DNA of 64,000 nt from an uncultured bacterium (GCA_905479655.1 CAJQNK010000121.1:14732-78731); one strand, 5' to 3'. Shown: positions 9,476 through 30,372, counted from the first letter of the stretch. Numbers and translations are program-made. The notes: generated from the letters alone by a model not told the origin.

Positions 9476-9495
9476 GAGCTTAACCCGGGAGTTAA
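9476..9495. promoter_or_regulatory. Perfect palindrome GCTTAAC-ccggga-GTTAAGC, candidate HigA-type operator upstream of the toxin gene
   Basis: Inverted repeat seen directly in the sequence, inside the lower-GC intergenic/leader region just before the HigB-like ORF. Confidence 0.4.
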
Positions 9496-9556
9496 GCTAC
9501 GCTTAGTCCGTCTCGGCCATAAGGTCTGGGAGGTGCTAGCCGTGCTGGACGAGAGT

Positions 9557-10389: not shown

Positions 10390-10396
10390 GCAGGCT

Positions 10397-13269: not shown

Positions 13270-13402
13270 GGGACCTCCGATCGGGTGAGAAGTCTGTCGA
13301 GGATACGGCGAGCGCGTCCCGTGCGGATTGTGGAGCCCGGACCCCGCCGTCGGCTCGTTCTGCGGGTCGGGCCCCGAGAACGCCGCTCCGAACCCCGGCC
13401 TG

Positions 13403-13585
13403 CTAGCCTGACCTTCTCACCAACTATCTACTACGAGACCGTATGTACCTGAATCTGCAGCGTTACGCTCTGCTCGGGCTCCTCGACGTACAGACAGTAC
13501 GACTGCGTCGCCCTCGGTCGCAAGCCTTGCATCTCCAGGCACCTACGGCCTCTCGCAACGACACCCGGTGAGAACGTCAGGCTAG
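13403..13585 (+). mobile_element. MITE-like element, copy A (183 bp, 19-bp terminal inverted repeats, no ORF)
   Basis: Left end CTAGCCTGACCTTCTCACC and right end GGTGAGAACGTCAGGCTAG. The 183-bp body is about 95% identical, in inverse orientation, to 27584..27766. Confidence 0.75.
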
Positions 13586-13696
13586 GGTCGCGACATCGAC
13601 TTTGCGCCCCGCACGGGTCGCGACCCGGGTTCGACCCACCCGCCCCTCGACGCTCTGTCGTCGGGAGTCGCCCACACGGCAGAGGCACGGAGGGCA

Positions 13697-13903
13697 TTGG
13701 AGACAAGGATGATGCCCGCGCGAAGCTGCATCCTGAAGACGTTGTGCCTGCTCCTTCTCCTCGCACCCGCGAGCGCGGCGAGCGGCGTACCGTTCGGAGG
13801 GGCCTGCTGGATCGACGAGCTGGCCTACACCGTCACGGACGGAGCGTGTGGGTTCGCGCCGGACCGCAGCGGCAGCTCGCTGTTCTCGTCGGTCGACCGG
13901 TAG
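13697..13903 (+). CDS. Small secreted Cys-containing peptide (hypothetical)
   Basis: 68-aa ORF with a clear signal peptide (ILKTLCLLLLLAPASAASG) and 3 Cys in the mature part. Lower-GC island. No homology assessed. Confidence 0.3.
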   Translation: METRMMPARSCILKTLCLLLLLAPASAASGVPFGGACWIDELAYTVTDGACGFAPDRSGSSLFSSVDR

Positions 13904-14006
13904 ACCGGTAGACCCTCAGCGACCCGGCGTCTGCCGGGGCACCCTATCGGGTGTCCCGGCCGGGGCTGGCCTCAGAGGGCAGCGATCTCCCAACCCGTGG
14001 GGTCGC

Positions 14007-14552
14007 TCAGGACCCCTCCCCGATGCTGCGGTAGGCGCAGAGGAGCTGCCCCTCGAGGAGGAAGATCCCGAGGCGGGCCGACCCCTCGGGGGCCTCGCCA
14101 CGGAGCAGGCAGCTGACCTCGGTGGCGTCGACGTCCGTCAGGGTCACGTCCAGGCTCCGGGGGAGCCTCTTCTTCCCGGTGACCGTCCACGGCAGCCAGC
14201 CGTTGGGAGCCGTTTCGACGTCGGCCTTCTTGCCCGCGTCGATGGCGGCGATCTTCTCCTTCTCCAGGATCTTGAAGCGCCAGGCGCTCCCGTCCTCCGG
14301 CGCCACGTCCAGCCGGAGCCAGGCGACCGCCTCCTCCCGCCACTCGTCGTCGCCCAGCTCGGCGAGACCGCGCTCGAAATCCTTGATCTTCTCGAGCGCC
14401 AGGGCCTGATCCTGCTGCCAGACTGCGCCCTCGCGGCCGAGCGGGGTCGGTCCGGCTCCGCCGCCACCGCGCTGAGCCGAGGCGGGCGGGTTCACGGTGA
14501 GAACCAGGATCATCAACAGCAACAGCGGAATCAGACGGTGGGGCGCTTTCAT
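14007..14552 (-). CDS. Secreted hypothetical protein
   Basis: Signal peptide (MKAPHRLIPLLLLMILVLTVNPPASAQ). Plausible GGAG-type RBS. Codon usage consistent with the lower-GC island. No recognised domain. Confidence 0.5.
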   Translation of the reverse strand: MKAPHRLIPLLLLMILVLTVNPPASAQRGGGGAGPTPLGREGAVWQQDQALALEKIKDFERGLAELGDDEWREEAVAWLRLDVAPEDGSAWRFKILEKEKIAAIDAGKKADVETAPNGWLPWTVTGKKRLPRSLDVTLTDVDATEVSCLLRGEAPEGSARLGIFLLEGQLLCAYRSIGEGS

Positions 14553-15237
14553 GGGGATCTCCTCTCAACGGGTCGGGGCGAGGGGGCTTCCGATTCGATC
14601 TCGACGTTGCTCAGGGGTCTCTTCGAAGGGATGGGACGGCGTCGCTGGGACCGCGCGGGCAAGGGCTGGGCGAGCGATCCTCTCCTCACCAGACAACGAC
14701 CTCTACGTCGGTCGAGGTGACGAGATTCCCCTCGCCGTCCTCGGGCACGAGCCTGCCGGTCGCCAGGGTTCGCGTGGCGACGAGGCCGGCTACCGGAGGG
14801 CGGAGCGACCGAGGGCTGAGCTCGTGAACGGAACGCTGCGGAAGAGAGGCTGCCATTCGCACGCCCCCGAGTCTATGACGATCCAGGGTCCGACCGCTCC
14901 CTCGCAGGGACGAGCCGCTCGCCGCCAAGGACCTGTCGCGCCGCCCGCGCCCGAAGCCGGGCCCTCGTCGCCTCCCGGGCGACGATCCACGGCTCCCGGC
15001 GCGAAGGGCCGGCGGCGCCGCGTCCGAGCCCGTCGGCGCCCGAGGGCGGACTAAGGTGTTGAGCCAAGAGAGAGATACGCCGACGAGGGGCGCCTCGACG
15101 AGCAGCCCGGCCGCGCGCCGCCGAGATTTGAACGATTCACGTTACAGGCGAATGTGGCTCGTCATCGTAGACTCGTCGCATCCGAGGAGCAGGCGGTCAA
15201 TGGAGGGCGTCGCGCGTCCTTGGAGAGGAGTTGTGCC

Positions 15238-15357
15238 ATGGCTCGTTGGTTTCTCCCGCTCTTCATCGCCTTGCTCGCCGGACTCGAGGTTGAGCCAGGG
15301 TTGATCGGCAGTCCCGGGGACCTCATGGGGCAGGGCTCGCGGATCGAGACCGACTGA
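15238..15357 (+). CDS. Candidate small hydrophobic peptide ORF (39 aa) convergent on the TPR-regulator gene
   Basis: ATG preceded by GGAGAGGAG 8 nt upstream. MARWFLPLFIALLAGLEVEPGLIGSPGDLMGQGSRIETD. Speculative. Confidence 0.25.
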   Translation: MARWFLPLFIALLAGLEVEPGLIGSPGDLMGQGSRIETD

Positions 15358-15361
15358 GGAC

Positions 15362-16648
15362 TCAGTCGTTCAGTTGTCCCCTTCTTGATCGGATCGCACG
15401 TGCGACGGCCTGGATTGTCTGGGCCGTCGCGACTTCCTCCTGGGCTGCTCGCAGGAAGAGCCCAGCCGCAGCCAGGGCCTCACGACCCAGATTGCGGGCT
15501 TCGAGCGTAGGTACGATTCCCTCGGCGATCCTCTTGACCTCGCCCAGTTCCCCTAGCCTGAGATGGGTGATCGCGGCATCGAGCGAGCAGAGCGCGGCCT
15601 CAACGGTCATCCCCATTCTCAAGAGTCCATCTCGGGCCGAACGAAAAGCCTGCCCGGCATCGCGGAGCTTGCCGCTGGCCGCGAGGACTCGCGCCTCTGT
15701 CCAGCGAACAATGACACGGTCCACCGGTGTGGCGAAGAGTTCGTACGCCGGCATGGCGGCCCGGATTAGCTCGAGAGCCCTCCCCTTCTGCCCGGTTTCG
15801 AGAAGGGACTCGAGGAGATTGTGAGCGATGGCGAACGCGAGACGCCCATCGTCGAGAGCATCCGTGAGATCTAGAGAGCGCGTCAGAACCCTGGCCTCTC
15901 GGTTGGGTTCATCGACTTCAGACCAAGCTCGAGCGAGCCGATGTAGAACCCGTCCGACCGCCGAATAGTGACCCTGAGAGAGGTAGACTCTCGCCGCCTC
16001 TCTGAAGCTCTCCCTCGCGCGGCCCAGTTGCTTTGAGTGTGAGTAGAGTTCCCCAGCCTCTTCGCACAGCCGCGCCAGATCCACGGGGTCATTGGTGCCG
16101 CTCTTCAGCAACTCTCGCGCTTCAGTGAGGGCTAATTCAGCCTCTCGGTATGCGGAGGTTCGACGCAGCGAGAGGGCCAAAGTGATGCGGGCACGCCCAC
16201 GGGTGTCCAACAAGAGAGCTTGGCCATAGTCGTCCTCAGAAAGGCGATCCGCTGCCTCGGTCGCTAGCTCTGCGAGGTGAACAGCTTCTGCAGGGTCGGT
16301 GCCCAGGCTCCGTCTCGACGCTTCCTCGAGGCTCTCAACAAGTGGTGGAGATTGGTACTGCCATGAGTTCCTGACCAGCGTTAGCTGTCGTCCTCGCGGA
16401 TGTCTCAAGAGGCGACTGACCAGTACCGGTGCGATCTCTCGCTCGATGTCAGCTCTTGCGGACGCTCCGTCAAGGCGAGCCAGGAGTGCGGAAGTGGCCC
16501 CACCAAACCCTGAGTAATCAGACGGTCCGATTGCGTTCGAGAGCTCGCGGCGGCATTCCCCGCAGCCCCGGAGCAGGTGAGCGATGCCTTCCTGCGACTT
16601 CTTGCCAGCGAGGAGTTCACGCACTGGTGGTTTGTTTCGATCGCTCAC
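15362..16648 (-). CDS. TPR-repeat regulatory protein with an N-terminal Cys-rich (CGECRRE) segment
   Basis: Multiple TPR-like helical repeats (...AIAHNLLESLLETGQKGRALELIRAAM...). 4-bp ATGA overlap with the upstream HTH gene. Lower GC. Confidence 0.6.
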   Translation of the reverse strand: MSDRNKPPVRELLAGKKSQEGIAHLLRGCGECRRELSNAIGPSDYSGFGGATSALLARLDGASARADIEREIAPVLVSRLLRHPRGRQLTLVRNSWQYQSPPLVESLEEASRRSLGTDPAEAVHLAELATEAADRLSEDDYGQALLLDTRGRARITLALSLRRTSAYREAELALTEARELLKSGTNDPVDLARLCEEAGELYSHSKQLGRARESFREAARVYLSQGHYSAVGRVLHRLARAWSEVDEPNREARVLTRSLDLTDALDDGRLAFAIAHNLLESLLETGQKGRALELIRAAMPAYELFATPVDRVIVRWTEARVLAASGKLRDAGQAFRSARDGLLRMGMTVEAALCSLDAAITHLRLGELGEVKRIAEGIVPTLEARNLGREALAAAGLFLRAAQEEVATAQTIQAVARAIRSRRGQLND

Positions 16649-17268
16649 GAACGCTCCCGGTCTTCTGGTTGATCTCGCGCGGGACTTTCCGTCGGCCGAC
16701 CGATCTCGCTCGTCGCCCGCATCACCAGGGACCTCAGCAACCCCAGCGCCCGCTCGAACTCCTGGTCGGAGATGGGCTCCTCGGGGTCGGAGTGCGCCAG
16801 GTCCTCGGCCTCGTTCCAGAGGCGGCGGGCGTCGCTGGCCACCAGGTTCTCCAGGCCGTCGACGGCCTGTCGGAGACCGGCGACCGTGCGGTCGAGATCC
16901 TCGGCGGAGCGGTCGGTGACGAGCTTGCGGGCCTCGGACAGGAGGCGTCGGGAGTCCTGGAGGAGGTCGACGGGGCGCGGGATGTGGCGGAGGCCGGTGA
17001 GATGGGAGACGGGCGAGCTCGTCTCGTCCGGCGACGAGGCCGCGAGCTCGTTCATCGCCCGCAGGAGGTCCCGCAGGTCGGCGCCCATTCCGCGCAGGCA
17101 GGCGACGGTGCTCTCGAGGTCGCTGCGGCGGCCCGCGAGGACCTCGTTGACCACGTCGGGAGGCAGATCGGCGCGTTGCGCCAGGTCCGCCTCGGAGGTC
17201 AGCCCGCTACGCTCGAAGAGCGCCCGGACGCCGTCGGAGAGCCTCTCCTTCGGATTCACACGATGCAT
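16645..17268 (-). CDS. HTH (XRE-like) DNA-binding protein; start at MHRVNPKE (the ORF track's upstream extension is unlikely)
   Basis: N-terminal 'LTSEADLAQRADLPPDVVNEVLAGRRSDLESTVACLRGMG' resembles an XRE HTH. Translationally coupled to the TPR gene. Confidence 0.55.
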   Translation of the reverse strand: MHRVNPKERLSDGVRALFERSGLTSEADLAQRADLPPDVVNEVLAGRRSDLESTVACLRGMGADLRDLLRAMNELAASSPDETSSPVSHLTGLRHIPRPVDLLQDSRRLLSEARKLVTDRSAEDLDRTVAGLRQAVDGLENLVASDARRLWNEAEDLAHSDPEEPISDQEFERALGLLRSLVMRATSEIGRPTESPARDQPEDRERS

Positions 17269-17409
17269 CGTACTGACGCATCGTGAGGCGGTCAAACCTT
17301 GATAGTTGTGATTTCTTCGGGCCTCGCGCGGGCCGGGCGTGTGCCTGCGGGTCAGGGGAAGTCCACCCGACGGCGATCGGGTGAGATGTCGCACCCCCGT
17401 CGGGGCGGC

Positions 17410-20400
17410 TCAGCTCAACAGCATGCGGAGCTCTTTGGCGGTGAGCTCCTTCGGTTCCTCGCCCTCTTCGCCTTCGAGGACCGCGTCGGCGATCTGACGC
17501 TTCGCCTTCTGGAGCTGGAGGATCTTCTCCTCGACCGTGTCCTGCGCGATGAGGCGGTAGGCGAAAACGGGCTGGGTCTGGCCGATGCGGTGGGCGCGGT
17601 CGATGGCCTGGGCTTCGACGGCCGGGTTCCACCACGGGTCGAGGAGGAAGACGTAGCCCGCGGCGGTCAGGTTGAGCCCGACGCCTCCCGCCTTCAGGCT
17701 GATGAGGAAGAGGTTGGTGTTCGGGTCCTTCTGGAACTGCTCCACGACCTTCCTGCGGTTGCGGGTCTGGCCGTCCAGATAGGCGTAGGGCAGGCCCTGT
17801 TCGTCGAGGCGCTGGCGCACGAATCCCAGGAGCTTGGTGAACTGCGAGAAGACGATCGCCTTGTGGCCCTCCTCCAGGACCTCGCCGACGAGCTCGAACA
17901 CGGTGTCGAGCTTGGCGCTGCCGGCGTCCGCCCACTCGTCGCGCACCAGTCCGGGATGGCAGGCGATCTGCCGCAGGCGCAGAAGCGCCGCCAGGACCTC
18001 GATGTGATTGGCCGGCTTGCCACCCTCCGCGCTCGCGAGCAGGTTCTGCTGGAAGCTGGCGCGGAGCTGGTCGTAGAGCTCCCGCTGCCGGTCGTTGAGC
18101 GTGGTGTGGAGGATCTGCTCGGTCTTGGGCGGCAGGTCCTTGAGCACGTGGGCCTTGGTGCGGCGGAGGATGAAGGGGCGGATCCCCTGGCGGATGCGCT
18201 CGAGCTCGGACTTGCTCGCGGCCCGGCCCGTCATGAGGGCCTCGAGCGTCGGAAGCTGCCCGAGCAGCCCGGGGTTCAGGAACTCGAAGATCGATCCCAG
18301 CTCCCCGAGGTGGTTCTCGATCGGCGTACCGGTGAGGGCTAGGCGGTGGTCGGCCTGGAGCAGGCGGGCCGCCTTGGCGCCCTGGGAGTCACGGTTCTTG
18401 ATCGCCTGCGCCTCGTCGAGGATGATCGTGTCGAACTCCACGGTGGCGAGGAATCCCACGTCCCGGCGGAGCGTGCCGTAGGTCGTCACGATGACGTCGT
18501 AGTCCTCGAGGTGGTCGTGCAGCGCCTCCCGGCCCGGGCCCCCGTACTCCACGACCTTGAGGTCGGGCGTGAAGCGGTTCGCCTCGTCGATCCAGTTGTA
18601 GAGCAGACTCCGCGGCACGACGACCAGGTAGGGCAGGCCGGTGCTCTTGCTCTTCGTCCGGTGGGCCCGCATGAGGGCCAGCACCTGGACCGTCTTGCCC
18701 AGACCCATGTCGTCGGCCAGGACGCCACCCAGCCCGTACTCGCGCAGGAAGTCGAGCCAGCCGAGGCCCTCGCGCTGGTAGCCACGGAGCGTGCCCTTGA
18801 AGCTCCGGGGCTCCTTCTTCGGCTTGATGCTCTCGAAAGAGCTGAGCTTCTCGCGCAGCTTCGAGAAGGCCTCGTCCACCGCTGCCGGCGGCATTTCGAC
18901 GAGGAGGGAGTCGACCAGCAGCGCCTGGGAGGAGAGGAAGCGGAGGTTGCCTCCTTCCCCCTCCTCGTGGGCGAGCTCAGCCAGCGATCCGTAGGTCTCG
19001 GTCCAAGCCGAGGGCAGGAGACCGGCGGAACCGTCCTTCAGCCGCACGAAGCGGTCGCCCCGCGAGACGGCGTCCAGGATCTCCTTCATGTCGATCTCGT
19101 CACCGTCGAAGTCGGCGCTGCCCGAGAGCTCGAACCAGTCCATGCCGCTCTCGATGCGCATCGACGGCGGGTTGGGAGAGCGGACCGAGCGGCCCTGGAC
19201 CTCCACGATCCAGCCGTCGGCCAGCAGCGGCTCGGCGACGGACGGCACTTCCTGCCGACGCACCTCGAGCTGGTGTCCCTCGCTCGCCTGGAGTGGCCGC
19301 GCTCCGGACTCGAGCAGGCGGACCAGGGCCTTGTGCTCCCCCTCGAGGTCCCTCTTCAGCATGCGTCGCTCGGACCAGTCGACCACGGTGGATCGGGTGT
19401 CGCCGGCGCCGACCTCCACGTCGCCGTAGAGGAACGAGAGCTCGGCGATGAGCGGCGGGTCCGGCAGCACCGATTGGTCATCCTTGCTCAGGACGAGCCG
19501 GGGCTGGAGGTTCTCCGTCTCCTTGGAGAGCGAGAGCTCGTCCGGGATTCCCAGCTCGGGCAGGTCCGGGATGTCGAACAGCTCGGCGTAGGCCTCTTCG
19601 AGGTCCCGGCGCGGAATGATGATCTCGTTGGCCTCGCGGAGCCGAGTGATCCACTGCAGGTCTCTCGGGCTGCGGGTCTCGAGCCGCGCGAGCGATCCGC
19701 CGACGACCATCAGGGAGGGGCGGTCGCCCTCGCCGCGCAGAACGAGGAGTGGATCGCTGACGGAGACCTTGTGGCTGTTGCGCTCGAGGGTCCCCTCCAG
19801 ACGCATGGTGCCGGTGGAGGTCTCTTCGAGATGGAGCGACAGCTTCCAGGGCCGGCTGTCGTCCCAATCGAGGTCCTTGCCGCCGCCCGGCCTGCGGCCA
19901 TCCCACCAGCCCAACGCGTCGTTGGAGGCGAGGTGCGGCAGCACCGAGTGGTAGAGGGATGGTGGCAGGCGGACCTGCTGGATGCCGGGGCGACCGGTCG
20001 CCTTCCCTCGCTTGCCGCGGCTGCGGCTGGGCGGGGGAGCGGAGAAGCCGGCGACGAAGGCGGAGGCCGAGTCGCGCCTCTCGGCGACGCTCGGCGGGAG
20101 CAGAATGCGGGGCAGGCTCTCGGGATCGACGTCGGAGCGTCGGAAGCGGCCCGGTTTGCCGCCGGGGCCGTTGCGGCGGAGGAAGACGTCGAGGAGAACG
20201 GCCTCGTCCGGCACGCTGTCCTTGACGTTGATGAGGAAACGCAGCCCGTCCGGCACTACACCCTGCGCCGGGCCCTTGGCCTCGTCCTTCGATGTCTCTT
20301 CTTCGCCGCCGTCGCGAACCGCGGCGAAGAGCGCCCTCCAGGCACTGGTCCCCGGCGGGCCGGTGGCGGGGCCCCTGCGTCCCCGCGGTCGTGCCGTCTG

Positions 20401-20904
20401 CACCCGGGATCGCGGCTGCGGCTCCTGGGAGGGCGGCTTGCCCTCGGGCTCGACCCCGAGATCCCCCCAGCGGTCGGGTCGGTCCCTGCGCAGCGAGACC
20501 CGGTCTCCGCCGGGAGGCTGGCTGTCCGGGGCCTCGCGGTCTACGGCCACCAGGACCGACCAGACGTGCTCGCAGATCTCGCCGGAGGTGAAGCTGGGGC
20601 ACTCGCAGAAGACGTGCAGAGCGCGCTTCTCGGGCACACGGGACCACTCCAGACCGACCCGATAAGCCTTGGGGTCCGCCTGCCGCACCAGCGCGCGAGC
20701 GCGGGTACCTTCGACCTCGAGTTGCACGCGTCCCGCTTCGACATGATCCTCACCGCGCTCTCGGACAGGCGGAGGGAAATGAGAGCTGCTCCGCTTGAAG
20801 AGAGGGGCGAGTGGGGTGTCGGGGGAGCGCCGGCGTTTTCTGCCGCGACGTCGGGTCGGACGTCGAGTCCTCCTAGCCGCACACACTGGCGCGGAGATTA
20901 ACAT
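17410..20904 (-). CDS. SNF2-family helicase with an N-terminal SWIM zinc finger (RapA/YwqA-like); start uncertain (ATG 20904 or an internal GTG)
   Basis: SWIM '[19 protein letters not shown]'. SNF2 motifs '[12 protein letters not shown]', 'DEAQAIKN', and a helicase C-terminal domain ([24 protein letters not shown]). Confidence 0.85.
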
Positions 20905-21199
20905 GAGGTACGCGCGTTGGGGAAGGGCTCGAGACGAATCCCGTCTTTTCTCCTCGGGCGCGGATGGCGTGTCAATCTCCGCAGGGCGCGGTCCAGGTGA
21001 CGGGGCCGCCCCCCGCGGCGGCCAGGGTGGCGGCTTCCACGGCGTCGAGCTCGCGGCCGTCAGGGCCGCGAGTCCGTCGAACGGATCCTGCGGCGGCCTC
21101 GTCCCCGCGCTCGAGGCCGGGTACACTCTCGCCAGCGGCGCCCCCCGCGGCGCAGCTCCCGCCTCGGCCACCATTCCCTTCCGCAGGACAGGAGATCCC

Positions 21200-21628
21200 A
21201 TGAAGACAGCGACGATCGAGACCGCCCGGGGCACGATTCGCCTCGAGCTGCACGACGACAAGGCACCGAAGACGGTGGCCAACTTCGAGAAGCTGGCAGG
21301 ACAGGGGTTCTACGACGGCCTGAAGTTCCACCGGGTGATCGCCGACTTCATGGTCCAGGCCGGCTGTCCCCAGGGCACCGGCACCGGCGGCCCCGGCTAC
21401 ACCTTCGAAGACGAGATCCACCCGGAGCTGCGCCACGACGGCCCCGGGGTCCTCTCCATGGCGAACGCGGGTCCCAACACGAACGGCTCCCAGTTCTTCG
21501 TCACCCACGTGGCGACACCGTGGCTCAACGGCAAGCACTCGGTCTTCGGCCGCGTCACGGAGGGGCAGGACGTCGTCGACGCGATTCGTCAGGGCGACAC
21601 GATGAGCGAGGTCAAGATCGACGGGTAG
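21200..21628 (+). CDS. Peptidyl-prolyl cis-trans isomerase, cyclophilin type
   Basis: '[30 protein letters not shown]...[14 protein letters not shown]' cyclophilin signature. GGAGA RBS at 21191-21195. Confidence 0.9.
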
Positions 21629-21633
21629 TCGGG

Positions 21634-23178
21634 CTAGGACTCCAGCAGCCCGTGGCGGTCGAGGATCTCCTCCAGCTGAGTCTCGAAGGTGCTCTGGCTG
21701 AAGCGTCGGACCTCGTTCATGGCCAGCCGACTCCGCTCGGCCAGCCGGCCCGTGCCGAGCTCGCTCATGAGGCTCGTCGTGATCGCGGCGAGCTCGCGGC
21801 CGTTGCGGAACAGGAATCCCGACTCTCCGTCCCGAACGATCTCGAGCTGGCCGGCCTTGGCGATGACGACCGGAACGGCGCCCGCGCTCATGGCCTCGCA
21901 GGTCGTGAGACCGAAGTGCTCCAGCTTCTCGGGGTGCCGTCTCTCGCTTTCGCCCCAGCCCGCCGCGTGCCAGAAGATCGACGCTTTTCGGTACTCGTCG
22001 CGGAGGCTGTCGAACGGCAGGTCGGGCAGCAGACGGATCGGGTAGCCGCGCGCCAGGCGCTCGACATCGGCGTAGTGCTCGAGGTCCTCCAGACGGTTGC
22101 GGTGGACCGTCCCGGCGAGTCTCAGCTCCCACCCCCGTGGCACTTCGCCCCGGTCGCACATCCTGCGGAAGACGCGGGCCATCTCGACGTGCTTCTTGTT
22201 GTGCGAACCGTGGAAGAACCGTCCCACCGCCAGGATCACGGGCCGCTTCTCCCGCGGGTCTTCGCAGCGGAAGGCCTCGATGTCCACCGGCGGCGCGAGC
22301 ACCTCGTCGCGTAGGCCCCAGCGCCTCCGCACCCATCGACTGGTGAACTCCGAGATCGACAGCGCGAGGTCGTAGGTCTCCAGGAAGGCGGAGTCCCAGC
22401 GGGCGGAGGCCCGGACCATGCGGGTCAGGAAGCTGCCGGCCGCCCGCCGAGCTCGGGAGGTCGTGAACTGGATGCACAGGCCGAGTTGCCGCGGGTCGTT
22501 GGTCAGACCGCTCTGCCGCGGCACGAAGGTGCGGCTGCTCAGCGTGACGGGAACCGGGCTTCGGGGCTTCCGTGGCGCCGTCAGGACCAACGTGTCGTCC
22601 TCGATCGCCCAGGTCAGCCCCTCGCACTCGACGTCTTCCAGCATCTCTCCGGCCGGGTGGGACGGCGGGTTCGCGAACAGGATGCGTGCGGTGCGCCCCT
22701 GGAAGGCCCGCGGGAAGACCAGCATCTCCGCCCGCTCCCGCGTCCAGGCCCGACCGCCCTCCTCGGAGTGGAAGCCGCCTTGCGGCACGATCGGTGAGCG
22801 GAGGGACGGCTCCAACCGCCGCAGGGTTCGCAGCCACGGGTCGAGGAGGCCGCCGCCGGCCACCTTCTGGGGGAAGAAGACGACGTACGCGGAGCGCCGG
22901 GCCTGGGACGCCAGGGTGGAGCTGAAGGTCGAGTTGACGAACAGGTCGTAGTCGGCCGAGCGCGGCGCCAGCCGGGCCTCGTCGATCCCGGGCCAGCGGC
23001 GGAAGGTGGTCCGCGAGAGATCGATCCCCAGGTGCTCGCCCAGCTCTTCGGGGTCGATGGACTCGACGCCGATGAGCTCCACCTCTTGATTCTTGGCCAG
23101 CGTCGCAGCCAGGGTCGCCGCATAGCGCTCCCCTCCGCCGCGAGTGCTCCAGTAACGGTTGTAGATTCCGATGCGCAC
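21634..23178 (-). CDS. Glycosyltransferase family 1 (GT4-like)
   Basis: N-terminal 'MRIGIYNRYWSTRGGGERY', C-terminal GT1 E-x7-E region (...HAAGWGESERRHPEKLEHFGLTTCEAMSAG). Confidence 0.8.
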   Translation of the reverse strand: MRIGIYNRYWSTRGGGERYAATLAATLAKNQEVELIGVESIDPEELGEHLGIDLSRTTFRRWPGIDEARLAPRSADYDLFVNSTFSSTLASQARRSAYVVFFPQKVAGGGLLDPWLRTLRRLEPSLRSPIVPQGGFHSEEGGRAWTRERAEMLVFPRAFQGRTARILFANPPSHPAGEMLEDVECEGLTWAIEDDTLVLTAPRKPRSPVPVTLSSRTFVPRQSGLTNDPRQLGLCIQFTTSRARRAAGSFLTRMVRASARWDSAFLETYDLALSISEFTSRWVRRRWGLRDEVLAPPVDIEAFRCEDPREKRPVILAVGRFFHGSHNKKHVEMARVFRRMCDRGEVPRGWELRLAGTVHRNRLEDLEHYADVERLARGYPIRLLPDLPFDSLRDEYRKASIFWHAAGWGESERRHPEKLEHFGLTTCEAMSAGAVPVVIAKAGQLEIVRDGESGFLFRNGRELAAITTSLMSELGTGRLAERSRLAMNEVRRFSQSTFETQLEEILDRHGLLES

Positions 23179-23190
23179 GGGAGTTCCCGG

Positions 23191-24480
23191 TCAGTCCTCG
23201 AGCCAGTCCCAGCGCTTGCGCAGGGCCCTGGGGATCTGTCGCACCAGGCTGCGATGGACTTGGAGGCGGGTCTCGAGATCGCGGCGGCTGGTGCCGTCGC
23301 CCCGCAACCCGTCGCGGAAGGTGCGGCCCGTGAGTCGGGCGAGAACCCCCAGCTCCCGGGCATAGCCTCGCAGGAAGCGGCCGGGGGAGGCGTTCTTCGC
23401 CAGGGTCAGCACGCGGTTTCGCGCGGTGTAGAAGTCGAAGGTGGGAGAGCGCTCGACGCTCGAGGCCGCGTGCAGATGACGCACGACCGCCGACGGCTCG
23501 TAGCGGATGCGCCAGCCGTCGGCCCGCAGTCGCCACGAGAGGTCGGTGTCCTCGTAGTACATGAAGAAGTCGCGGTCGAACAGGCCGACCCGGTCCAGGG
23601 CGGCGCGTCGGAGCAGGACGGCCGCACCACACATGGCAGGCACGTCCACGGCCTCCTCGTACTGTCCGACGTCGATCTCGTGGATCCCCCGGTCCGCCGG
23701 GTCTCCACGGTCGTCGAGGATGGTGCCGACGTTGTTGATCACGCCGACCGCAGCGGCCCGCGCGAGCTCGGCCGGGAGCCCGATGCGGAGTCGGTCGGCT
23801 CGGCCAGGCACCTCCAGCGTCGCCACGGGCCGGCCGTCCACCTCGACCTCGGCCTCCCCGGGCCGCTCACCCGTGGCGACGAGCTCCAGGTTCAGACGGA
23901 CCTCGGAGCCGGGCTCGGGCTCACCCAGGGGTACGAGGAGCTCGGCCTGCCCCTCCACGACGCGACCGAGGACGCCGCCGGCCGCCGCCCAACCGCCGAA
24001 TCCGTCGCCGAAGAGGAGCTTGTCGTAGTCGCAGCCGTCGAACGAGCACCGGGGGCCGACGACGATCCGGCCGTGGCTCCCGGCTCCTCGCGAGCGGAGG
24101 AGGACGGGCACGAACGGGCGGTCGAAGAGGATCTTGGAGGTCACGGCCCCGATCGTCTCGTCCTCGCCGGCCGCGGCCAGGAGACGTTCGAGCCAGTCCG
24201 GCTCGGGGAAGGCGTCGTTGTTGATGAGGGCGACGAAGGGAGCGCTCGTCTCCCGGATCCCCAGGTTGTTGCCGCCCGCGAACCCGAGGTTGCCGGACGC
24301 CTGGATCAACCGGACCCAGGGATGGCCTTCGCGCACCAGCTCGACCGAGGCGTCGCTCGAGCGGTTGTCGACGACGACGGTCTCGAACGACGGGCAGGTC
24401 AGGCGGCGCAGGCTCTCCAGCAGCCTGGGGAGGAGACGAGACCCGTTGTAGTTGACCGTGATGACGCTGACTTCGTGCAA
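23191..24480 (-). CDS. Glycosyltransferase family 2
   Basis: 'VSVITVNYNGSRLL...VVDNRSSD...GFAGGNNLG...INNDAFPEPDWL' GT2 motifs. Confidence 0.85.
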   Translation of the reverse strand: MHEVSVITVNYNGSRLLPRLLESLRRLTCPSFETVVVDNRSSDASVELVREGHPWVRLIQASGNLGFAGGNNLGIRETSAPFVALINNDAFPEPDWLERLLAAAGEDETIGAVTSKILFDRPFVPVLLRSRGAGSHGRIVVGPRCSFDGCDYDKLLFGDGFGGWAAAGGVLGRVVEGQAELLVPLGEPEPGSEVRLNLELVATGERPGEAEVEVDGRPVATLEVPGRADRLRIGLPAELARAAAVGVINNVGTILDDRGDPADRGIHEIDVGQYEEAVDVPAMCGAAVLLRRAALDRVGLFDRDFFMYYEDTDLSWRLRADGWRIRYEPSAVVRHLHAASSVERSPTFDFYTARNRVLTLAKNASPGRFLRGYARELGVLARLTGRTFRDGLRGDGTSRRDLETRLQVHRSLVRQIPRALRKRWDWLED

Positions 24481-24505
24481 GCCGCTCGGCTCCCCGATCG
24501 CAGCG

Positions 24506-24760
24506 CTACCGCCCGCGCAGGCGGCGCCACAGCCGGCGCGCGGCGCGCGTGTAACGGAAGGTCCGGCTCGAGAGGATCGAGGTGAGGTGGCTCTGCACCT
24601 GGTCGAGCTGCTCCCGCGTGCGGACCACCTCGCGGCGCAGCCGGGCGTTCTCGACCTGCATCCGTTCCAGCTCCGCCTGCGGAGGCTCGTCTCCGGACCG
24701 CTTCACCTCGGCGGCGACCGGCTTGATCTTCGATGCGGTGCGCCCCGTCGCTTGGGTCAT
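24506..24760 (-). CDS. Small coiled-coil hypothetical protein (84 aa)
   Basis: Internal ATG with a strong GGGAGG RBS 7 nt upstream. Heptad-like 'ELERMQVENARLRREVVRTREQLDQVQSHL'. Confidence 0.4.
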   Translation of the reverse strand: MTQATGRTASKIKPVAAEVKRSGDEPPQAELERMQVENARLRREVVRTREQLDQVQSHLTSILSSRTFRYTRAARRLWRRLRGR

Positions 24761-24887
24761 GGGTTCGCCTCCCGGCCCGGGTAGCCGGAGCGGGTTCGCT
24801 CCGGAGGCCGAGAAAACCAGTCCAGGCAATCTAGCACGCCGAGGAACGCGGCATGGCGGGGGGAGCCCGCCGGCGACGCCCGGCTCG

Positions 24888-26285
24888 TCAGTCGACGTAG
24901 CCCAGGGCCTCGAGGGCCTTCTTCTCCTCGTCCGTCAGGGTAACGGCCTCCTCGTCGCCGCCGCGCGTGAGCTCCTGGGCCAGCTGGCGGCTCTCCTCCA
25001 GACGTCGGCGCAGCTCGCGCGCCAGCCGGTTGGCGCGCTGCCGCTCCTCCGGCGCCAGGTCGTGGCGCTCCTCCGGGTCGGCGAGCAGGTCGTAGAGCTC
25101 GACGGTTCCTTGACCGAGGTCGACACGGACCTTCTCGTCGTCCGTCCGCAGGCCGTACTTCTTCGCGTTGATCGAGTTCTGGCTGAACGTGGAGCGCTTG
25201 TGGCGCTCGCCGCCCGCGATCAACGCCAGCAGGCTCTCCCCCTGGATTCGGGCCGGGGGCTCGACGCCCAGGAGCTCGGCCAGGGTCGGGAGCACGTCCA
25301 CCGTCTCGACGACGTGGTCGATCCTCCGCCCGGCCCCCTCTCCGCCGGGCATCTTGATGACCAGTGGGATCCTGGCCGTCTCCTCGAAGGTCTGCGAGTG
25401 CAGCCAGCGGCCGTGCTCGCGGAACTCCTCGCCGTGGTCGGCGGTGAGGACGATCAGGGCCTCGTCGTACATCCCGCGGTCCCGCAGGCCCTGAAGGAGC
25501 TGGCCGATCTCCTCGGCGAGATACCGTGCACCCGCTCGGTAGAGGCCCTCGATCCGCGCCCGGATCTCCTCGCTCACCTGCGTCCGGTTGCGATCCGTCC
25601 CGATGAGGAAGCTGGTGGCGCAGTTGCCCTCGTCGTCGCAGAACTCGCTGCCGTCCCCGCTGACCCCCAGGCCCTCGCGCAACGGCTCGGGGGCGAAGTA
25701 GGGCAGCTTGTTGTCGGAGCCCTGGGAGAAGTCGGAGTGGGCGTCGTAGTAGTGCAGGAAGAGGAACAACGGCTCCCCGGACTCGTTCCCGGCGTCGATC
25801 CGTTCGAGGGCGGCGCTGTTGACGCGCGGCGCGTAGGTCGGGCGGTGGGGGAGCCGGCGGTAGTCGTCGAAGCCGCGATCGAAACCCCACTTCGGATCGA
25901 GCCACTCCGTCGTGACGATCGCGGAGGTGGTGTAGCCGGCCTCCTTCACCAACTCGCCCAGGACCGGGATGGTCGCGGTGAGGGGGGCTCCTCCCGGGCG
26001 CACGGTGTGCGCCTCGGGGTAGAGCCCGGTGAACAGCGACATGTGGGACGGCAGCGTGTGCGGGATCTGGCACACCGCCTCCTCGAACAGCACGCCGTCC
26101 GCCACCAGGCGGTCGAGCGCCGGAGTCGGCGAGGATTCCGCCCCCGAGAGGGCCCCGAGGGCATCCGCGCGGAAGGTGTCGAGAGAGATCAGCACCACCA
26201 GCCGCGGCGGCGTCGCCTCGGGAGGCGCGCCGCAGGCGCACGGCGCGAACGCGAGGAGGAGCGGTAGGCCTTGCAGGAACCTCAT
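24888..26285 (-). CDS. Sulfatase-like hydrolase/transferase (alkaline-phosphatase superfamily), secreted
   Basis: Signal peptide. 'VVLISLDTFRADAL' metal/nucleophile motif with Ser/Thr instead of Cys. 'LTADHGEEF' and 'HYYDAH' motifs. Confidence 0.8.
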   Translation of the reverse strand: MRFLQGLPLLLAFAPCACGAPPEATPPRLVVLISLDTFRADALGALSGAESSPTPALDRLVADGVLFEEAVCQIPHTLPSHMSLFTGLYPEAHTVRPGGAPLTATIPVLGELVKEAGYTTSAIVTTEWLDPKWGFDRGFDDYRRLPHRPTYAPRVNSAALERIDAGNESGEPLFLFLHYYDAHSDFSQGSDNKLPYFAPEPLREGLGVSGDGSEFCDDEGNCATSFLIGTDRNRTQVSEEIRARIEGLYRAGARYLAEEIGQLLQGLRDRGMYDEALIVLTADHGEEFREHGRWLHSQTFEETARIPLVIKMPGGEGAGRRIDHVVETVDVLPTLAELLGVEPPARIQGESLLALIAGGERHKRSTFSQNSINAKKYGLRTDDEKVRVDLGQGTVELYDLLADPEERHDLAPEERQRANRLARELRRRLEESRQLAQELTRGGDEEAVTLTDEEKKALEALGYVD

Positions 26286-26467
26286 CGGGGACTCGTGGCG
26301 GATGCTCCGCGAGCCGGACCCGCTCTTTCCGGGGCGAATCGTCTCTCGGAGGGGGTCGAGGGTAGCATGAGCCGAGGTCCGCCCGGGTGGCCCGTCTCGG
26401 GTCCGCCGGGCGGGACCGCGTCGCGGAAGGCGACGGGGCGGAGCACGGATCGAGGGGAGCCAGCGGG

Positions 26468-27439
26468 ATGCGAGCGGCCGAACGGGTGACGGTGATCGTG
26501 CCCACCTTGGGTGCGAGTCCCCATCTGGAGGAGTGCCTCGCCCGGCTCGGCGCGGAGGGAGTCGGTGCGGGGGGAGTCGGCGCGCCGGAGCGGATCGTGG
26601 TCGATCAGCGGCCGAGCCCCACCCCGATCGCCGGCGCGGATCGTCTCCTGACCCCCGGCCGGAACCTGGGTTTTGCCGGCGGGGTCGATCTCGGTCTCCG
26701 GGAAGCCGGGAGGGAGCTGGTGGCGGTCGTCAACGACGACCTCCTGCCCGAGCCCGGGTGGCTCGGCGAGCTCGTCGGGGTCCTGGATCGCCACCCGCGG
26801 GCGGCCGCGGCGCAGGGGGTCAACCTCGGCCTCGAAGACCCGAGCCGGGTCGATGGCTGCGGCATCGCCTTCAACCGCTTCTGGCGACCCGTCCAGATCG
26901 GCCAGGGCGTCGCGCCTCCGGCGACCGCGGAAGGGGTGCGGGAGGTCTTCGGCTGCTCGGCCACGGCCGTCCTCTACCGGCGTGAGGCGCTGGCCGCGGT
27001 GGCGGGGCCCGGGGGAGCCGTCTTCGACGAGCGCCTGGTCTCCTACTACGAGGACGTCGAGCTGGCGACGCGTCTGCGGGCGGCCGGATGGACGGCGCTG
27101 GTCGCCCTCGGGGCCCGGGCCCTGCACGCCGGCTCCGTCACCTCGCGCGGGATGCCCTGGCAGCGGCGCAAGCTCCACTTCGCCAACCGGTATCTCGTGT
27201 TGGCCTCTCTCCTCGGCCGGTCCCTCTGGCCGCGGCTGCCGGGCCTGCTGGCGCGCGACCTGGTCGAGATCCTCGGCGAGGTGGCCTCGGGCTCGCCCGT
27301 CGCTCTCGTCGCCGCGGTCGCCGGCTGGGGTCGGGCGGCGCGCCTCCTGGGTCGCTACGGGCCCCGGGGAGCTCCCGCGATCCCGATGTCGGAGCTGCGA
27401 CGGTTCCGGGTCCCGCGAGCCGCCTGGTGGCCCTGGTAG
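26468..27439 (+). CDS. Glycosyltransferase family 2
   Basis: 'VTVIVPTLG...LGFAGGVDLG...VNDDLLPEPGWL' GT2 motifs. Start at the second ATG (MRAAERV). Confidence 0.75.
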   Translation: MRAAERVTVIVPTLGASPHLEECLARLGAEGVGAGGVGAPERIVVDQRPSPTPIAGADRLLTPGRNLGFAGGVDLGLREAGRELVAVVNDDLLPEPGWLGELVGVLDRHPRAAAAQGVNLGLEDPSRVDGCGIAFNRFWRPVQIGQGVAPPATAEGVREVFGCSATAVLYRREALAAVAGPGGAVFDERLVSYYEDVELATRLRAAGWTALVALGARALHAGSVTSRGMPWQRRKLHFANRYLVLASLLGRSLWPRLPGLLARDLVEILGEVASGSPVALVAAVAGWGRAARLLGRYGPRGAPAIPMSELRRFRVPRAAWWPW

Positions 27440-27462
27440 GCCTGGACCGCGCGGCCACCCGG

Positions 27463-27587
27463 TTCGACGCGACGACACCCGGTGAGAAGGTCAGGCTAGT
27501 CCCGCTCCGGAAATTCCATACCCCCATCTCGGCCCCTTCTCCACCTACGGCCCCTCGCTACGACAACCGGTGAGAAAGGCAGGCTAG
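27463..27587 (+). repeat. Two nested right-end fragments of the MITE (each ending in GGTGAGAARGnCAGGCTAG)
   Basis: 27481-27499 GGTGAGAAGGTCAGGCTAG and 27569-27587 GGTGAGAAAGGCAGGCTAG, each preceded by sequence matching the inner right arm of copy A (cacctacggcc.ctcgc.acgaca.ccc). Confidence 0.6.
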
Positions 27588-27766
27588 CCTGACCTTCTCA
27601 CCGGATGTCGTTGCGAGAGGCCGTAGGTGCCTGGAGATGCAAGGCTTGCGACCGAGGGCGACGCAGTCGTACTGTTTGTACGTCGAGGAGCCCGAGCGGA
27701 GCGTAACGTCGCAGATTCAGGTACATACGGTCTCGTAGTAGACAGTTGGTGAGAAGGTCAGGCTAG
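27584..27766 (-). mobile_element. MITE-like element, copy B (183 bp, inverted relative to copy A); its terminal CTAG supplies the stop codon of the HEAT/pseudocaspase gene
   Basis: The reverse complement of 27584..27766 aligns with 13403..13585 with only a handful of mismatches. TIRs CTAGCCTGACCTTCTCACC / GGTGAGAAGGTCAGGCTAG. Confidence 0.75.
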
Positions 27767-30372
27767 TACTTCGACTGACTGCGGCGCCGCGGAGGCAGGG
27801 CCTCGACACCCCGGTTCAGGGCCTGGATCGCGGCCTCCTGGACCTCCGGTGACGGGTCGCCCTTGGCCATCCTCTCCAGGATGCCCCGGACCTCGTCGGT
27901 GTCGGCGAAGGGGCCGAGGGAGAGGGCGGCGAGCCGCCGCACCGAGGGAGCCGGGTCCCGGGCGGCCTCCAGGAGAGCGCCGACGGCCTCCGGGGCGATC
28001 CGCCTCCCCAGGGCTCGGACGGCGTCGGAGCGGACGGCGCTCGAGGGGTCGCGGGCCGCGGTGGCCAGGGCCTCGACGGCCAGGTCGTTGCCGCCCCGGT
28101 GGATCTCTCCGAGCACCTCGGCTGCGCTCCGGCGCGCGACCGGCTCCGCATCCGGCGTCAGGAGCACCTCGGCGACCCGCTCGGCCACCTGGGGATCGTC
28201 CGCGCTCTCGACGAGGCTGTCGACCGCTTCGGCCCGCGCGGTCGGGTCGGGGTCGCCCAGCCCCCGCAGCAGCACGGCCAGGGTCCGCTCGTCCAGGTAG
28301 GCGGCGCTCTTCTGGTAGGTGAGGCCCCGGAGGTAGTCCGACTTCTCCCGCACCTCGTCGGGGGCGGCCTCCTGGGCCAGCAGGGACGGGTCGAAGTCCC
28401 GACTCTCGAGCTGACGCCGGGCCTCGGCGCGGACGTAGGGATCCTCGTCGTCCGCGCGGGCCGAGAGGGCCTCGATCGCCGCCGGGGTACCGATCGCTCC
28501 CAGGGCCGAGACGGCCGCCCGCCGCAGTCCCACGGTCGCTCCCGCGGCAGCCTTCGCCGTCAGCTCCGGCACGGCGGAGGCGGCCCCCAGTTGGCCGAGG
28601 GCCTCGACGGTGGCCACCGCGACCTCCTCCGGAGGATCCGCCAGGAGGAGGTCGCGCAGCAGCGCTTCGGCCTCGGGGCCGCCGAGCCGCCCCAGGGAGG
28701 TGGCGGCCGCGGCGGCGACGGCCGGCCGATCGTCCCCGGTGGCGGCGGTCAGGACCTCGAGCACCACGTCGCGGGCCTCCTCGACGTAGACCCGGCCGAG
28801 GCTCAGAGCCGCGAGCTGGCGAACGTCGGGGTTGGGGTCGGTCAGGACCCGCTGGGCGAGGGCCTCGCTCGCCGCCGCCGACGGACCGAGGCGGCCCACC
28901 GCCGCCGTGGCCTCGCGTCGCACCTCTTCGTCCGGGTGCTCGAGGGAGTCCACGAACACGTCGCGGTCCTCCTGACGGCCGAGGGCGGAGAGCTCCTGGA
29001 GGGCGGCCAGGATCACGGTCGAGGTCTCGCCGTTGCGCCCGACGACGGCGCGCAGGAGCGCCGCGGTCTCCGGGTGTCCCGACACCGCGAGCGAGCGCAC
29101 CGCCGCCCAGCGGACGGACGGGTCCGGGTCCCCCAGCGCGGCGCGCAGGGCGGAGCGGTCCTCGGTTCGGGGGCTCTCGAACCGCGCGATGCGCCCCAGG
29201 GCGCGATTCCGCACGACGGCGGGGACGGTCGCCCCGGCGGCGACCTCCACGAGGGCGTCGCGGGCCGCGGTGGACTCCAGCTGTCCGAGGACCTCGATCG
29301 CCCAGGAGCGCATGCGAACCGCCTCGGGCCCCTCGAGGGCGACCCTCGGAAGGCCGGCTTCCGGGTCCAGGGCGATCTCTCGCAGCAACGCGACGAGGCC
29401 GGGATTGGCGCCCGGCTCCGCGGCGGCGAGGGCGGAGATCCGCTCCATGGTGAGCTGGGCGGACTCGAACGAGATGGCGCCGCGCCACTCGTGCCGGAGG
29501 GCGTCCGGCTCGGCCGTCGCCAGCAACCGGAACTCCGGCGCGGAGCGGGGCACCGTCAGGACGGCGAGGTCGAAGGTCCCGGGACCCTGGACCGCGGAGT
29601 GGGCGAGCGCCGTCGCCGCGGCCTCCCCGGCACCCCCGACCGCCTCGCTGCGGAGCGCCCGGGCCAGGGAGCGGGCGAAGGCGTCGCTGCCCCACAGACC
29701 GGACGCGCCGTCGGGCCTCCGCTCCCGGCGCTCCCTCTCCAGGTCGCAGACCAGGAAGGCGGTCACGGGCGCGCGTCGGCCCTCCTCCTCGAGGCGCTGC
29801 AGCATGGGATGGCGCGATACGAGGGTCCACCAGGCCTTCAGGTCGTCGCCGGCCTTCGACCGCACGCCGTACGGCAGCCGCTGACCGCAGGCCGGCAGGG
29901 TCAGGAGCACCTCCACCGCCGGGATCTCGCCCAGCCAGCTCCCGATCTCCTCGTCGGAGAGCAGGGTCCAGGGGCTCTCGCGGTCGCCGTCGGCCGGGAC
30001 GAAGCGGAGTCCGCGCCCGGTCTCCACCGGCAGGTTGAGATAGAGAACCAACTGGTCACCCGGGCTCGCCTGTCTCAGGAGCTCCCCGAGCGAGCGCGTC
30101 AACGCGCCGCGCGTCGCCTGTCTCGGCCCGAGGTAGGTGACATCGAAGCCGTAGGCGTCCTCGAGGGTCGCGGCCAGGCTCGCACCGCCGTCGCCGGCGC
30201 CGTCCGCGACCAGGGCCAGGTGCGCTCCGGGGGTCTGGGCCGACGGTTCCGAAGCCCTGGCCGTGTCCCGTGGGAGGAGCGCGAGGGCCGCCGGGAGGGC
30301 CAACGCCAGGATCAGCGCTCGGCGGAGGCGGCCGGCGCGACGGTGGGGCGTCACGATGCCGTGGGCTCTCAT
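27763..30372 (-). CDS. Secreted HEAT-repeat (PBS-lyase type) protein with an N-terminal caspase-like domain lacking the catalytic His (pseudocaspase)
   Basis: Signal peptide (ALILALALPAALALL). Caspase-like fold positions 'QLVLYLNLPVETGRG' (His replaced) and 'VLLTLPACGQR' (Cys kept). More than 10 HEAT repeats of the type 'DPDPSVRWAAVRSLAVSG' / 'DPNPDVRQLAALSLG'. Confidence 0.7.
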   Translation of the reverse strand: MRAHGIVTPHRRAGRLRRALILALALPAALALLPRDTARASEPSAQTPGAHLALVADGAGDGGASLAATLEDAYGFDVTYLGPRQATRGALTRSLGELLRQASPGDQLVLYLNLPVETGRGLRFVPADGDRESPWTLLSDEEIGSWLGEIPAVEVLLTLPACGQRLPYGVRSKAGDDLKAWWTLVSRHPMLQRLEEEGRRAPVTAFLVCDLERERRERRPDGASGLWGSDAFARSLARALRSEAVGGAGEAAATALAHSAVQGPGTFDLAVLTVPRSAPEFRLLATAEPDALRHEWRGAISFESAQLTMERISALAAAEPGANPGLVALLREIALDPEAGLPRVALEGPEAVRMRSWAIEVLGQLESTAARDALVEVAAGATVPAVVRNRALGRIARFESPRTEDRSALRAALGDPDPSVRWAAVRSLAVSGHPETAALLRAVVGRNGETSTVILAALQELSALGRQEDRDVFVDSLEHPDEEVRREATAAVGRLGPSAAASEALAQRVLTDPNPDVRQLAALSLGRVYVEEARDVVLEVLTAATGDDRPAVAAAAATSLGRLGGPEAEALLRDLLLADPPEEVAVATVEALGQLGAASAVPELTAKAAAGATVGLRRAAVSALGAIGTPAAIEALSARADDEDPYVRAEARRQLESRDFDPSLLAQEAAPDEVREKSDYLRGLTYQKSAAYLDERTLAVLLRGLGDPDPTARAEAVDSLVESADDPQVAERVAEVLLTPDAEPVARRSAAEVLGEIHRGGNDLAVEALATAARDPSSAVRSDAVRALGRRIAPEAVGALLEAARDPAPSVRRLAALSLGPFADTDEVRGILERMAKGDPSPEVQEAAIQALNRGVEALPPRRRSQSKY

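Follow-up and report, generated by a model that had tools for sequence, protein, structure and literature searches.

We analyzed a 64,000-nucleotide (nt) stretch of DNA from an uncultured bacterium (GCA_905479655.1, CAJQNK010000121.1:14732-78731), hereafter the window, and within it a short noncoding repeat that is very probably a transposable element of the miniature inverted-repeat class (MITE). Two full copies, A and B, lie in inverse orientation 14 kb apart, the first near an acyl-CoA oxidase gene and the second in the spacer between a glycosyltransferase gene and a gene for a HEAT-repeat protein. The features at the two sites, counted from the first nucleotide of the window, are as follows.

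13403-13585, minus strand (the strand of the best single-strand fold): MITE copy A, 183 nt, with CTAG at 13403-13406 and 13582-13585
27584-27766, plus strand: MITE copy B, 183 nt, in inverse orientation to copy A, with 96% identity
27542-27587, plus strand: right-arm end fragment of 46 nt, 89% identical to copy A 13540-13585; remnant of an older copy
27468-27499, plus strand: solo right-arm end fragment of 32 nt, 94% identical to copy A 13554-13585, with CTAG at its end
13284-13294, plus strand: 11-mer GGTGAGAAGTC, taken in an earlier note on this DNA for a remnant of a terminal inverted repeat (TIR); unsupported as part of the element
10963-13269, minus strand: acyl-CoA oxidase gene with an ATG start and the ribosome-binding site GGAGG; its start, not its stop, faces copy A
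26387-27439, plus strand: family-2 glycosyltransferase (GT2) gene, left neighbor of the two fragments and copy B
27763-30423, minus strand: HEAT-repeat protein gene, its TAG stop within the right-hand CTAG of copy B (27763-27766)

Results

Structure of the Repeat in the Window

A repeat search identified copies A and B as the longest inverted repeat of the window, with arms of 183 nt, 96% complementary and spaced by 13,998 nt. In the pairwise alignment they differ by seven mismatches, and the similarity ends exactly at the terminal CTAGs; the earlier note, which had described two inverted copies of about 95% identity at these positions, was right. The TIRs of copy A are 15 bp long and occupy 13407-13421 (CCTGACCTTCTCACC) and 13567-13581. 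Together with the CTAG they form a 19-mer, which each of the four ends of copies A and B has with zero to one mismatch. Allowing up to two mismatches, the terminal 19-mer CTAGCCTGACCTTCTCACC has six sites in the window, compared with 0.03 expected from shuffled sequences: four are ends of copies A and B (13403 plus, 13567 minus, 27584 plus, and 27748 minus) and two are solo ends (27481 minus and 27569 minus).

The two solo ends belong to the fragments beside copy B. Their existence had been noted before, but not at their actual lengths, which are 32 nt (27468-27499) and 46 nt (27542-27587). The longer fragment stands head-to-head with copy B, the CTAG at 27584-27587 being common to both, and the near-palindrome reported at this junction is present, although it spans 50 nt at 90% (repeat I2) rather than 34 bp. 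The same layout of abutting copies with one common CTAG recurs in another genome (locus L026, 6290-6308 and 6305). The shorter fragment begins 29 nt past the stop of the GT2 gene. In total, 257 nt of the 323-nt convergent spacer between the GT2 and HEAT genes are MITE derived (27468-27499, 27542-27583, and, from copy B, the 179 nt ahead of the HEAT stop). The right-hand CTAG of copy B is the end of the HEAT gene, so the stop codon of this gene is either supplied by, or coincident with, the terminal CTAG of the element. Copy A is upstream of the oxidase gene, 133 nt from its start (13269), and downstream of a minus-strand open reading frame (ORF) at 14007-14552, 421 nt from its stop. The 11-mer at 13284 exists as described but is no piece of a TIR: it is one G short of the TIR sequence, does not exceed chance level, and is missed by a scan for the 19-mer allowing four mismatches. 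Nor does it follow the oxidase stop, as had been stated, but lies 15 nt upstream of the oxidase start codon.

Another assembly from this population (ENA ERZ23498415, SOLA22-1 scaffold_294, 69 kb) is 100% identical to the left part of the window and stops inside copy A at window position 13456 (L084 1-54 corresponds to window 13403-13456). As this independent short-read scaffold terminates within the repeat, copy A evidently breaks assemblies. The junction across copy A in the window rests on one assembly, the other scaffold stopping within the copy.

Copies and Derivatives in Other Genomes

For other copies, we scanned one genome per species for the terminal 19-mer CTAGCCTGACNTTCTCACC and compared copy A with the retrieved loci (L numbers) by BLAST. 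The 19-mer matched at least 83 stretches; those listed come from ~15 metagenome-assembled genomes (MAGs), and almost all of these stretches are in Acidobacteriota MAGs (Thermoanaerobaculia, Ca. Multivoradales, Bryobacteraceae, and Acidiferrales). One MAG, CALZJC01, contained at least 16 loci with the 19-mer. Many matches lie within ~150 nt of contig ends, as expected for a repeat that breaks assemblies. BLAST found at least 32 further full-length copies in unrelated gene contexts, 174-193 nt long and 68-83% identical to copy A, besides many shortened ones; with copies A and B, the full-length set comprises 34 copies of 174-193 nt. Copies within a genome are 90-97% identical (six other MAGs), whereas copies from different genomes average 71%.

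These properties are those of a MITE. The element is 183 nt long, inside the usual range of about 50-600 bp, and has TIRs; it is dispersed within one genome and across related genomes; and it has neither a transposase nor conserved coding capacity. The ORF that runs across copy A (13431-13766) has no Pfam match. We rejected a 33-amino acid ORF of copy A as a small protein of the element, as it is not conserved: many copies have ATA in place of its ATG, and indels disrupt the reading frame. The earlier proposal of a MITE-like, multicopy element with TIRs is therefore borne out by many noncoding copies in many genomes with CTAG at both ends. Its alternative, a local duplication found only here and with no matching insertion sequence (IS), does not agree with the data, as both copies elsewhere and an IS with a matching end were found.

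Among the shortened copies are mini-derivatives of 46-79 nt in which internal deletions have left both terminal repeats and the CTAG flanks:

L017, 6752-6805: mini-derivative
L076, 3729-3783: mini-derivative
L079, 6455-6521: mini-derivative
L030, 2621-2695: mini-derivative
L057, 45-123: mini-derivative
L058, 890-935: mini-derivative

Judged by eye, these seem to keep a short foldback interior, and the deletions thus appear to preserve the palindromic layout.

Other arrangements were seen at single loci. Filled sites are orthologous between MAGs of different species in two cases (L013 2258 and L042 2345; L006 2618 and L031 95), with flanking genes ~77% identical; these could reflect old vertical inheritance, or the same stop-codon CTAG may have been struck twice. 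At L059 5370-5425, two short left-end stubs (CTAGCCTAGCCTGACC...CCTAGCCTGACC) directly precede a full copy; they could represent footprints, or else earlier, truncated insertions at the CTAG that this copy occupies. At L077 (4656-6245), one gene is enclosed by a full copy and a solo end of 56 nt, and the stop codons of both neighbors lie within element CTAGs. The product of the enclosed gene, judged by eye from its sequence, joins a receiver domain to an LpxC-like deacetylase (438 amino acids). The matching ends, 1.59 kb apart, made this locus a candidate for a full-length IS, which we rejected, since it consists of a MITE and a solo end around an ordinary receiver-LpxC gene.

An IS1380-Family Insertion Sequence with a Matching End

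An IS with a matching end occurs in a Bryobacteraceae MAG (OZ255821.1), where four copies align over 1672 nt and each contains one ORF of 464 amino acids. Its right end, GGTGAGAAGGTCAGG followed by CTAG, is the end of the MITE, identical over 15 bp and the CTAG. The ORF matches Pfam PF13701 (500 bits, E = 4e-150) and the NCBIfam equivalog NF033539, "IS1380 family transposase," with 381.4 bits against a cutoff of 180; the element thus has the single DDE transposase, above the curated cutoff, of an IS1380-family member. Elements of this IS1380 clade are located at loci L027, L032, L050, and L065. In L027, the IS interrupts a permease gene, and deletion of the IS and one CTAG gives an unbroken ORF that covers positions 2-120 of the 120 of the Pfam FtsX profile, spanning the junction. 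As removal of the IS and one CTAG restores the FtsX ORF, the insertion was clean and the empty site had a single CTAG.

IS1380-family elements measure about 1.6-2 kb and are known for short direct repeats of 4-5 bp. To widen the sample, we collected 80 related IS from metagenomes (L085-L164), with both ends recognizable in 52. These 52 measure 1664-1765 bp between the flanks, their inverted repeats (IRs; consensus CCCGNATTTCTCAC) begin with CC in every case, and in length, CC-starting IRs, and short repeats they conform to the IS1380 family. The flanks are YTAR at 103 of 104 ends (CTAG 61, CTAA 19, TTAG 17, and TTAA 6), and the two flanks of an element are identical in 34 of the 52 IS. Nonpalindromic pairs are direct in nine cases and inverted in three, which leans toward a 4-bp duplication. 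The MITE TIR CCTGACCTTCTCACC falls within the IR variation of the clade; L086, for instance, agrees with it in 12 of 15 bases at the left end and in 13 of 15 at the right. Taken together, the sequence evidence directly indicates IS1380 as the family to which the MITE ends would belong.

CTAG Targets and Stop Codons

In the alignment of the 34 full-length MITE copies, CTAG is present at most ends; CTAG is a palindrome and so hides the length of any duplication. The tetranucleotide is rare in this DNA: the window contains 22 CTAGs where 164 are expected from base composition, a ~7-fold depletion, and 69 by a Markov estimate. MITE ends account for 5 of the 22. At least 17 of the 34 copies have the TAG stop of a flanking ORF within a terminal CTAG, and the majority of copies are found at the 3' ends of genes or in the spacers of convergent pairs. 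As CTAG is avoided in these high-GC genomes and contains TAG on both strands, the targets that are usable would, on the simplest reading, often be stop codons, and an insertion there would be tolerated because it re-creates the stop.

A separate pattern concerns the other CTAGs of the window, 10 of the 22 sites being clustered in two lower-GC stretches (8990-10849 and 15553-16264). Both stretches hold ORFs of low GC content at third codon positions (GC3), such as 15362-16648 (GC3 0.65, no confident family), and the lower-GC DNA at 9-11 kb and 15.5-16.3 kb may be recently acquired.

A Covarying Hairpin

Copy A is predicted to fold into a single hairpin over its whole length, with a free energy of -104.7 kcal/mol on the minus strand (z = -10.6) and -72.0 kcal/mol on the plus strand. 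The asymmetry is general, as 33 of the 34 copies are more stable on the same strand (means -109.5 versus -94.1 kcal/mol). We derived a consensus structure from 31 copies on the better-folding strand. It has 54 pairs, with 93.4% of the cells paired, and both partners have changed in 26 of the 54 pairs. Of 500 shuffles, not one reached any of the five measures used, and sliding the partners by one to three columns reduced pairing to 32-41%. The subterminal and apical stems vary, and covary, from one genome-specific subfamily to the next. Almost no variation is seen in two internal segments (columns 45-80 and 108-145 of alignment A6, ~13445-13480 and ~13508-13545 in copy A), which include, on the stable strand only, a symmetric 2x2 internal loop of tandem G-A/A-G mismatches (GGAGAUGC / GCAGAUUC), which may be a binding site. 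As the pairing is kept by compensatory substitutions, the predicted fold is, on comparative grounds, under constraint, either at the DNA level during transposition or in the transcript.

A function in the transcript would make the element, in addition to its transposon origin, a structured RNA signal that, transcribed with the neighboring mRNA, protects, processes, or insulates transcripts at gene ends, a function suggested before for ERIC, REP, and Correia elements. Such a role would account for the conserved pairing and is possible, if doubtful. Apart from the covariation, the constancy of the better-folding strand and the near-invariant loop on that strand alone would suit it, as would the location of most copies at gene 3' ends or in convergent spacers and the foldback form that the mini-derivatives seem by eye to retain. 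Cells with G-U pairs also outnumber those with A-C (147 versus 28), but this count is biased, the structure having been predicted on that very strand. Against an RNA signal, the element shows no preferred orientation in tandem-gene contexts, with five copies codirectional with transcription and seven antidirectional. The hairpin is not followed by a U-tract, and a terminator scan gave no site at copy A and, at copy B, only a 5-bp internal stem that is not the element hairpin, so the element does not qualify as an intrinsic terminator. Rfam 15 has no family around copy A up to E = 10, which leaves the element outside the curated RNA families, and a sigma-70 promoter scan was negative. Moreover, the pairing of genome-specific subfamilies could be a legacy of palindromic master copies, and the hairpin might have its use in DNA, during transposition.

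The 14-kb Segment Between the Copies

The segment between copies A and B contains the following genes, all on the minus strand except the last.

ORF without assigned function (three such ORFs)
SNF2 helicase gene
Family-4 glycosyltransferase (GT4) gene
GT2 gene
Sulfatase gene
Second GT2 gene

The earlier note had suggested that the inverted copies border an acquired block or mediate its inversion. Acting jointly, they could be the ends of a composite transposon or substrates for inversion by homologous recombination, and at first sight the arrangement is suggestive: two copies of 96% identity bracket 14.0 kb in inverse orientation, any two MITEs in principle provide outward-facing ends, and the enclosed DNA includes a lower-GC stretch at 15.0-16.5 kb (GC 0.61-0.66) as well as the genes without assigned function. 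Upstream of the oxidase, relatives at 71-76% protein identity have an aldehyde dehydrogenase instead and are not syntenic. We nevertheless consider joint action very unlikely. The identity of the copies is ordinary, because it falls within the 90-97% measured within six other genomes, and close pairs are common, several 8-kb loci elsewhere (L013, L048, and L077) having two to three separate copies. The GC content of the block (~0.67-0.75) overlaps that of its flanks, and the cumulative GC skew climbs steadily through both copies, and neither GC content nor skew has a break at 13.4 or at 27.7 kb. Of the eight genes in the block, seven are on the minus strand, as are both flanking genes. The DNA to the right of copy B (genes for HEAT, caspase, subtilase, and STAND-like ATPase proteins) looks equally accessory, so the copies mark no boundary between core and accessory DNA. 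The CTAG flanks are no signature of a composite transposon, since every insertion has them, and at 183 bp the copies are short for an inversion that depends on RecA. We therefore found no support for either role. The oxidase homologs do not help with the borders of the block, as close relatives did not turn up, the nearest homologs (71-76% identity) are nonsyntenic on either side, and a synteny test is uninformative.

Most likely, copies A and B are independent insertions that lie 14 kb apart by coincidence, an independence that we infer from these comparisons.

Other features of the window touch the segment and its surroundings. ARAGORN called an 89-nt tRNA-Ser(cga) at 21063-21151 on the minus strand, within the N-terminal part of the SNF2 helicase ORF (17410-21282). 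At gathering scores, an Rfam scan of the whole window gave neither a tRNA nor a member of another family. This tRNA is probably a false positive; if it were real, the helicase would begin further downstream. On the right of copy B, a series of genes on the minus strand (27763-42195) encodes HEAT, caspase-domain, caspase and subtilase (1207 amino acids), AAA/protein-kinase, and AAA/TPR proteins, and this cluster resembles conflict- or defense-type genes. Exact look-ups of the HEAT and sulfatase proteins found neither on record, and that of the ORF at 14007-14552 returned only a 711-bp scaffold.

Discussion

Both repeats of the window are very probably copies of an ~183-bp nonautonomous element, a MITE with IS1380-type ends that is spread in Acidobacteriota and inserts into CTAG, and they would have arrived by independent insertions. 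According to this explanation, a transposase of the IS1380 family, encoded elsewhere in the genome, would move the MITE in trans by acting on its 15-bp TIRs (CCTGACCTTCTCACC). Insertion would take place into CTAG, or YTAR in the wider IS clade, and leave the tetranucleotide at both ends. In a genome of 70% GC, CTAG and YTAR sites would survive mostly as stop codons and in spacers, and the MITE would accumulate right behind genes, re-creating the stop and leaving the reading frame intact. Each insertion would also make new CTAGs at its ends and thus offer further targets, which could explain the nested and head-to-head remnants beside copy B. Copy B itself may have been inserted into a CTAG flanking a resident older copy, the fragment at 27542-27587.

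Several observations weigh against this explanation. The left end of the IS, CTAG followed by CCGCAATTTCTCAC, differs from the MITE TIR, and the IS interior has no convincing similarity to the MITE beyond ~20 nt. We tried to derive the MITE from the sampled IS right end by foldback and rejected the idea: convincing alignment is limited to ~20 terminal nucleotides, and a longer match of 84 nt at 67% falls apart when multiple sequences are aligned. The IS with the matching end belongs to a different family of Acidobacteriota. A tblastn search with the IS1380 transposase found nothing in the 64-kb window or beside the Thermoanaerobaculia MITE copies; among the fetched loci, it returned only the four Bryobacteraceae IS copies. 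When the 400-nt flanks of 35 MITE copies were compared by BLAST with all fetched loci, no empty orthologous site was found, the only orthologous sites being the filled ones (L013/L042 and L006/L031). As to length, a 4-bp duplication fits ~34 of the 52 clade IS and a duplication of TA only, with a repeat longer by one base, fits ~35; the IS flanks agree with both models and do not separate 4 bp from 2 bp. Gene calls in the MITE loci come from a crude, GC3-based caller. For the MITE itself, finally, we infer its mobility, its mobilization in trans, and the duplication of its CTAG target.

Among other readings, the RNA role and the joint action of copies A and B have been considered above. The weakest is descent from another IS family that targets CTAG or TA, such as the IS5/IS427 group mentioned in the earlier note or IS630, which inserts at CTAG and duplicates TA: CTAG at both ends and flanks compatible with a TA-only duplication would agree with it, but every transposase-bearing element found with this terminus is of the IS1380 family, the MITE TIR (CC.G...TTCTCACC) lies within the IR variation of the 52 IS1380-clade elements, and no ORF of the IS5 or IS630 type, and so no IS5/IS427 relative with matching ends, was seen beside any matching end, which makes such an origin extremely improbable.

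A more far-reaching idea combines the transposon origin with the hairpin. The element could be a mobile, stop-codon-seeking hairpin whose fold is selected across lineages of Acidobacteriota for what its transcript form does at gene ends, that is, a regulatory RNA module that has become domesticated and owes its spread to an IS1380/piggyBac-like transposase. Reading this from the alignments is speculative, and we think it unlikely. If true, the tandem G-A loop would be a recognition site for a protein or an RNA, and the mRNAs of the preceding genes would be stabilized, processed, or insulated.

With the MITE explanation, a repeat that breaks Acidobacteriota MAG assemblies gains a name and a proposed mechanism, and a MITE family is linked to a clade of IS1380 elements whose YTAR/CTAG target echoes the TTAA of piggyBac. 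A rare target that contains a stop codon would steer insertions to just behind genes, where they do little harm. The 14-kb segment with the SNF2, glycosyltransferase, and sulfatase genes loses its suggested status as a delimited mobile or invertible unit. The strong covariation of the hairpin is a lead for a role at the level of RNA or single-stranded DNA.

Comparison with Known Systems

Bacterial MITEs such as Correia/NEMIS of Neisseria, ERIC/MITEEc1, RUP, Nezha, and MITEAba12 have been reviewed (PMC10969869). The window element resembles them in its small size, TIRs, lack of coding sequence, dispersed and mostly intergenic copies, mutual clustering and insertion, and potential for stable hairpins. 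It differs in belonging to another sequence family, in its Acidobacteriota host, in its IS1380-type ends, and in its frequent location at TAG stop codons. A literature search, which was incomplete, found no MITE attributed to IS1380 or described for Acidobacteriota, and a 2024 review of prokaryotic MITEs makes no mention of CTAG or of stop-codon targeting.

With the IS1380-family IS (the 1.66-1.76-kb clade from Acidobacteriota and from soil and sediment metagenomes), the element shares the CC....TTCTCAC tip and the YTAR/CTAG flanks. Unlike these IS, it lacks a transposase and has only about one-ninth of their length, its two ends both correspond to the right-end type, and its interior is unrelated to the sampled IS ends. 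The piggyBac transposases have been treated as relatives of IS1380, with IS1380 as the outgroup (PMC10813416). Eukaryotic piggyBac elements are likewise flanked on both sides by a short palindromic tetranucleotide target with a central TA, TTAA in their case and YTAR, mostly CTAG, here. They differ in being eukaryotic, in having a longer transposase, and in that their precise excision and true 4-bp duplication are established.

The ERIC and REP palindromes, finally, have no sequence similarity to the window element, which in contrast to them has IS-type ends and target flanks and shows no orientation bias relative to transcription. The two have in common an imperfect long palindrome, a location in transcribed intergenic regions, the greater stability of one strand, and a proposed role in mRNA stability.

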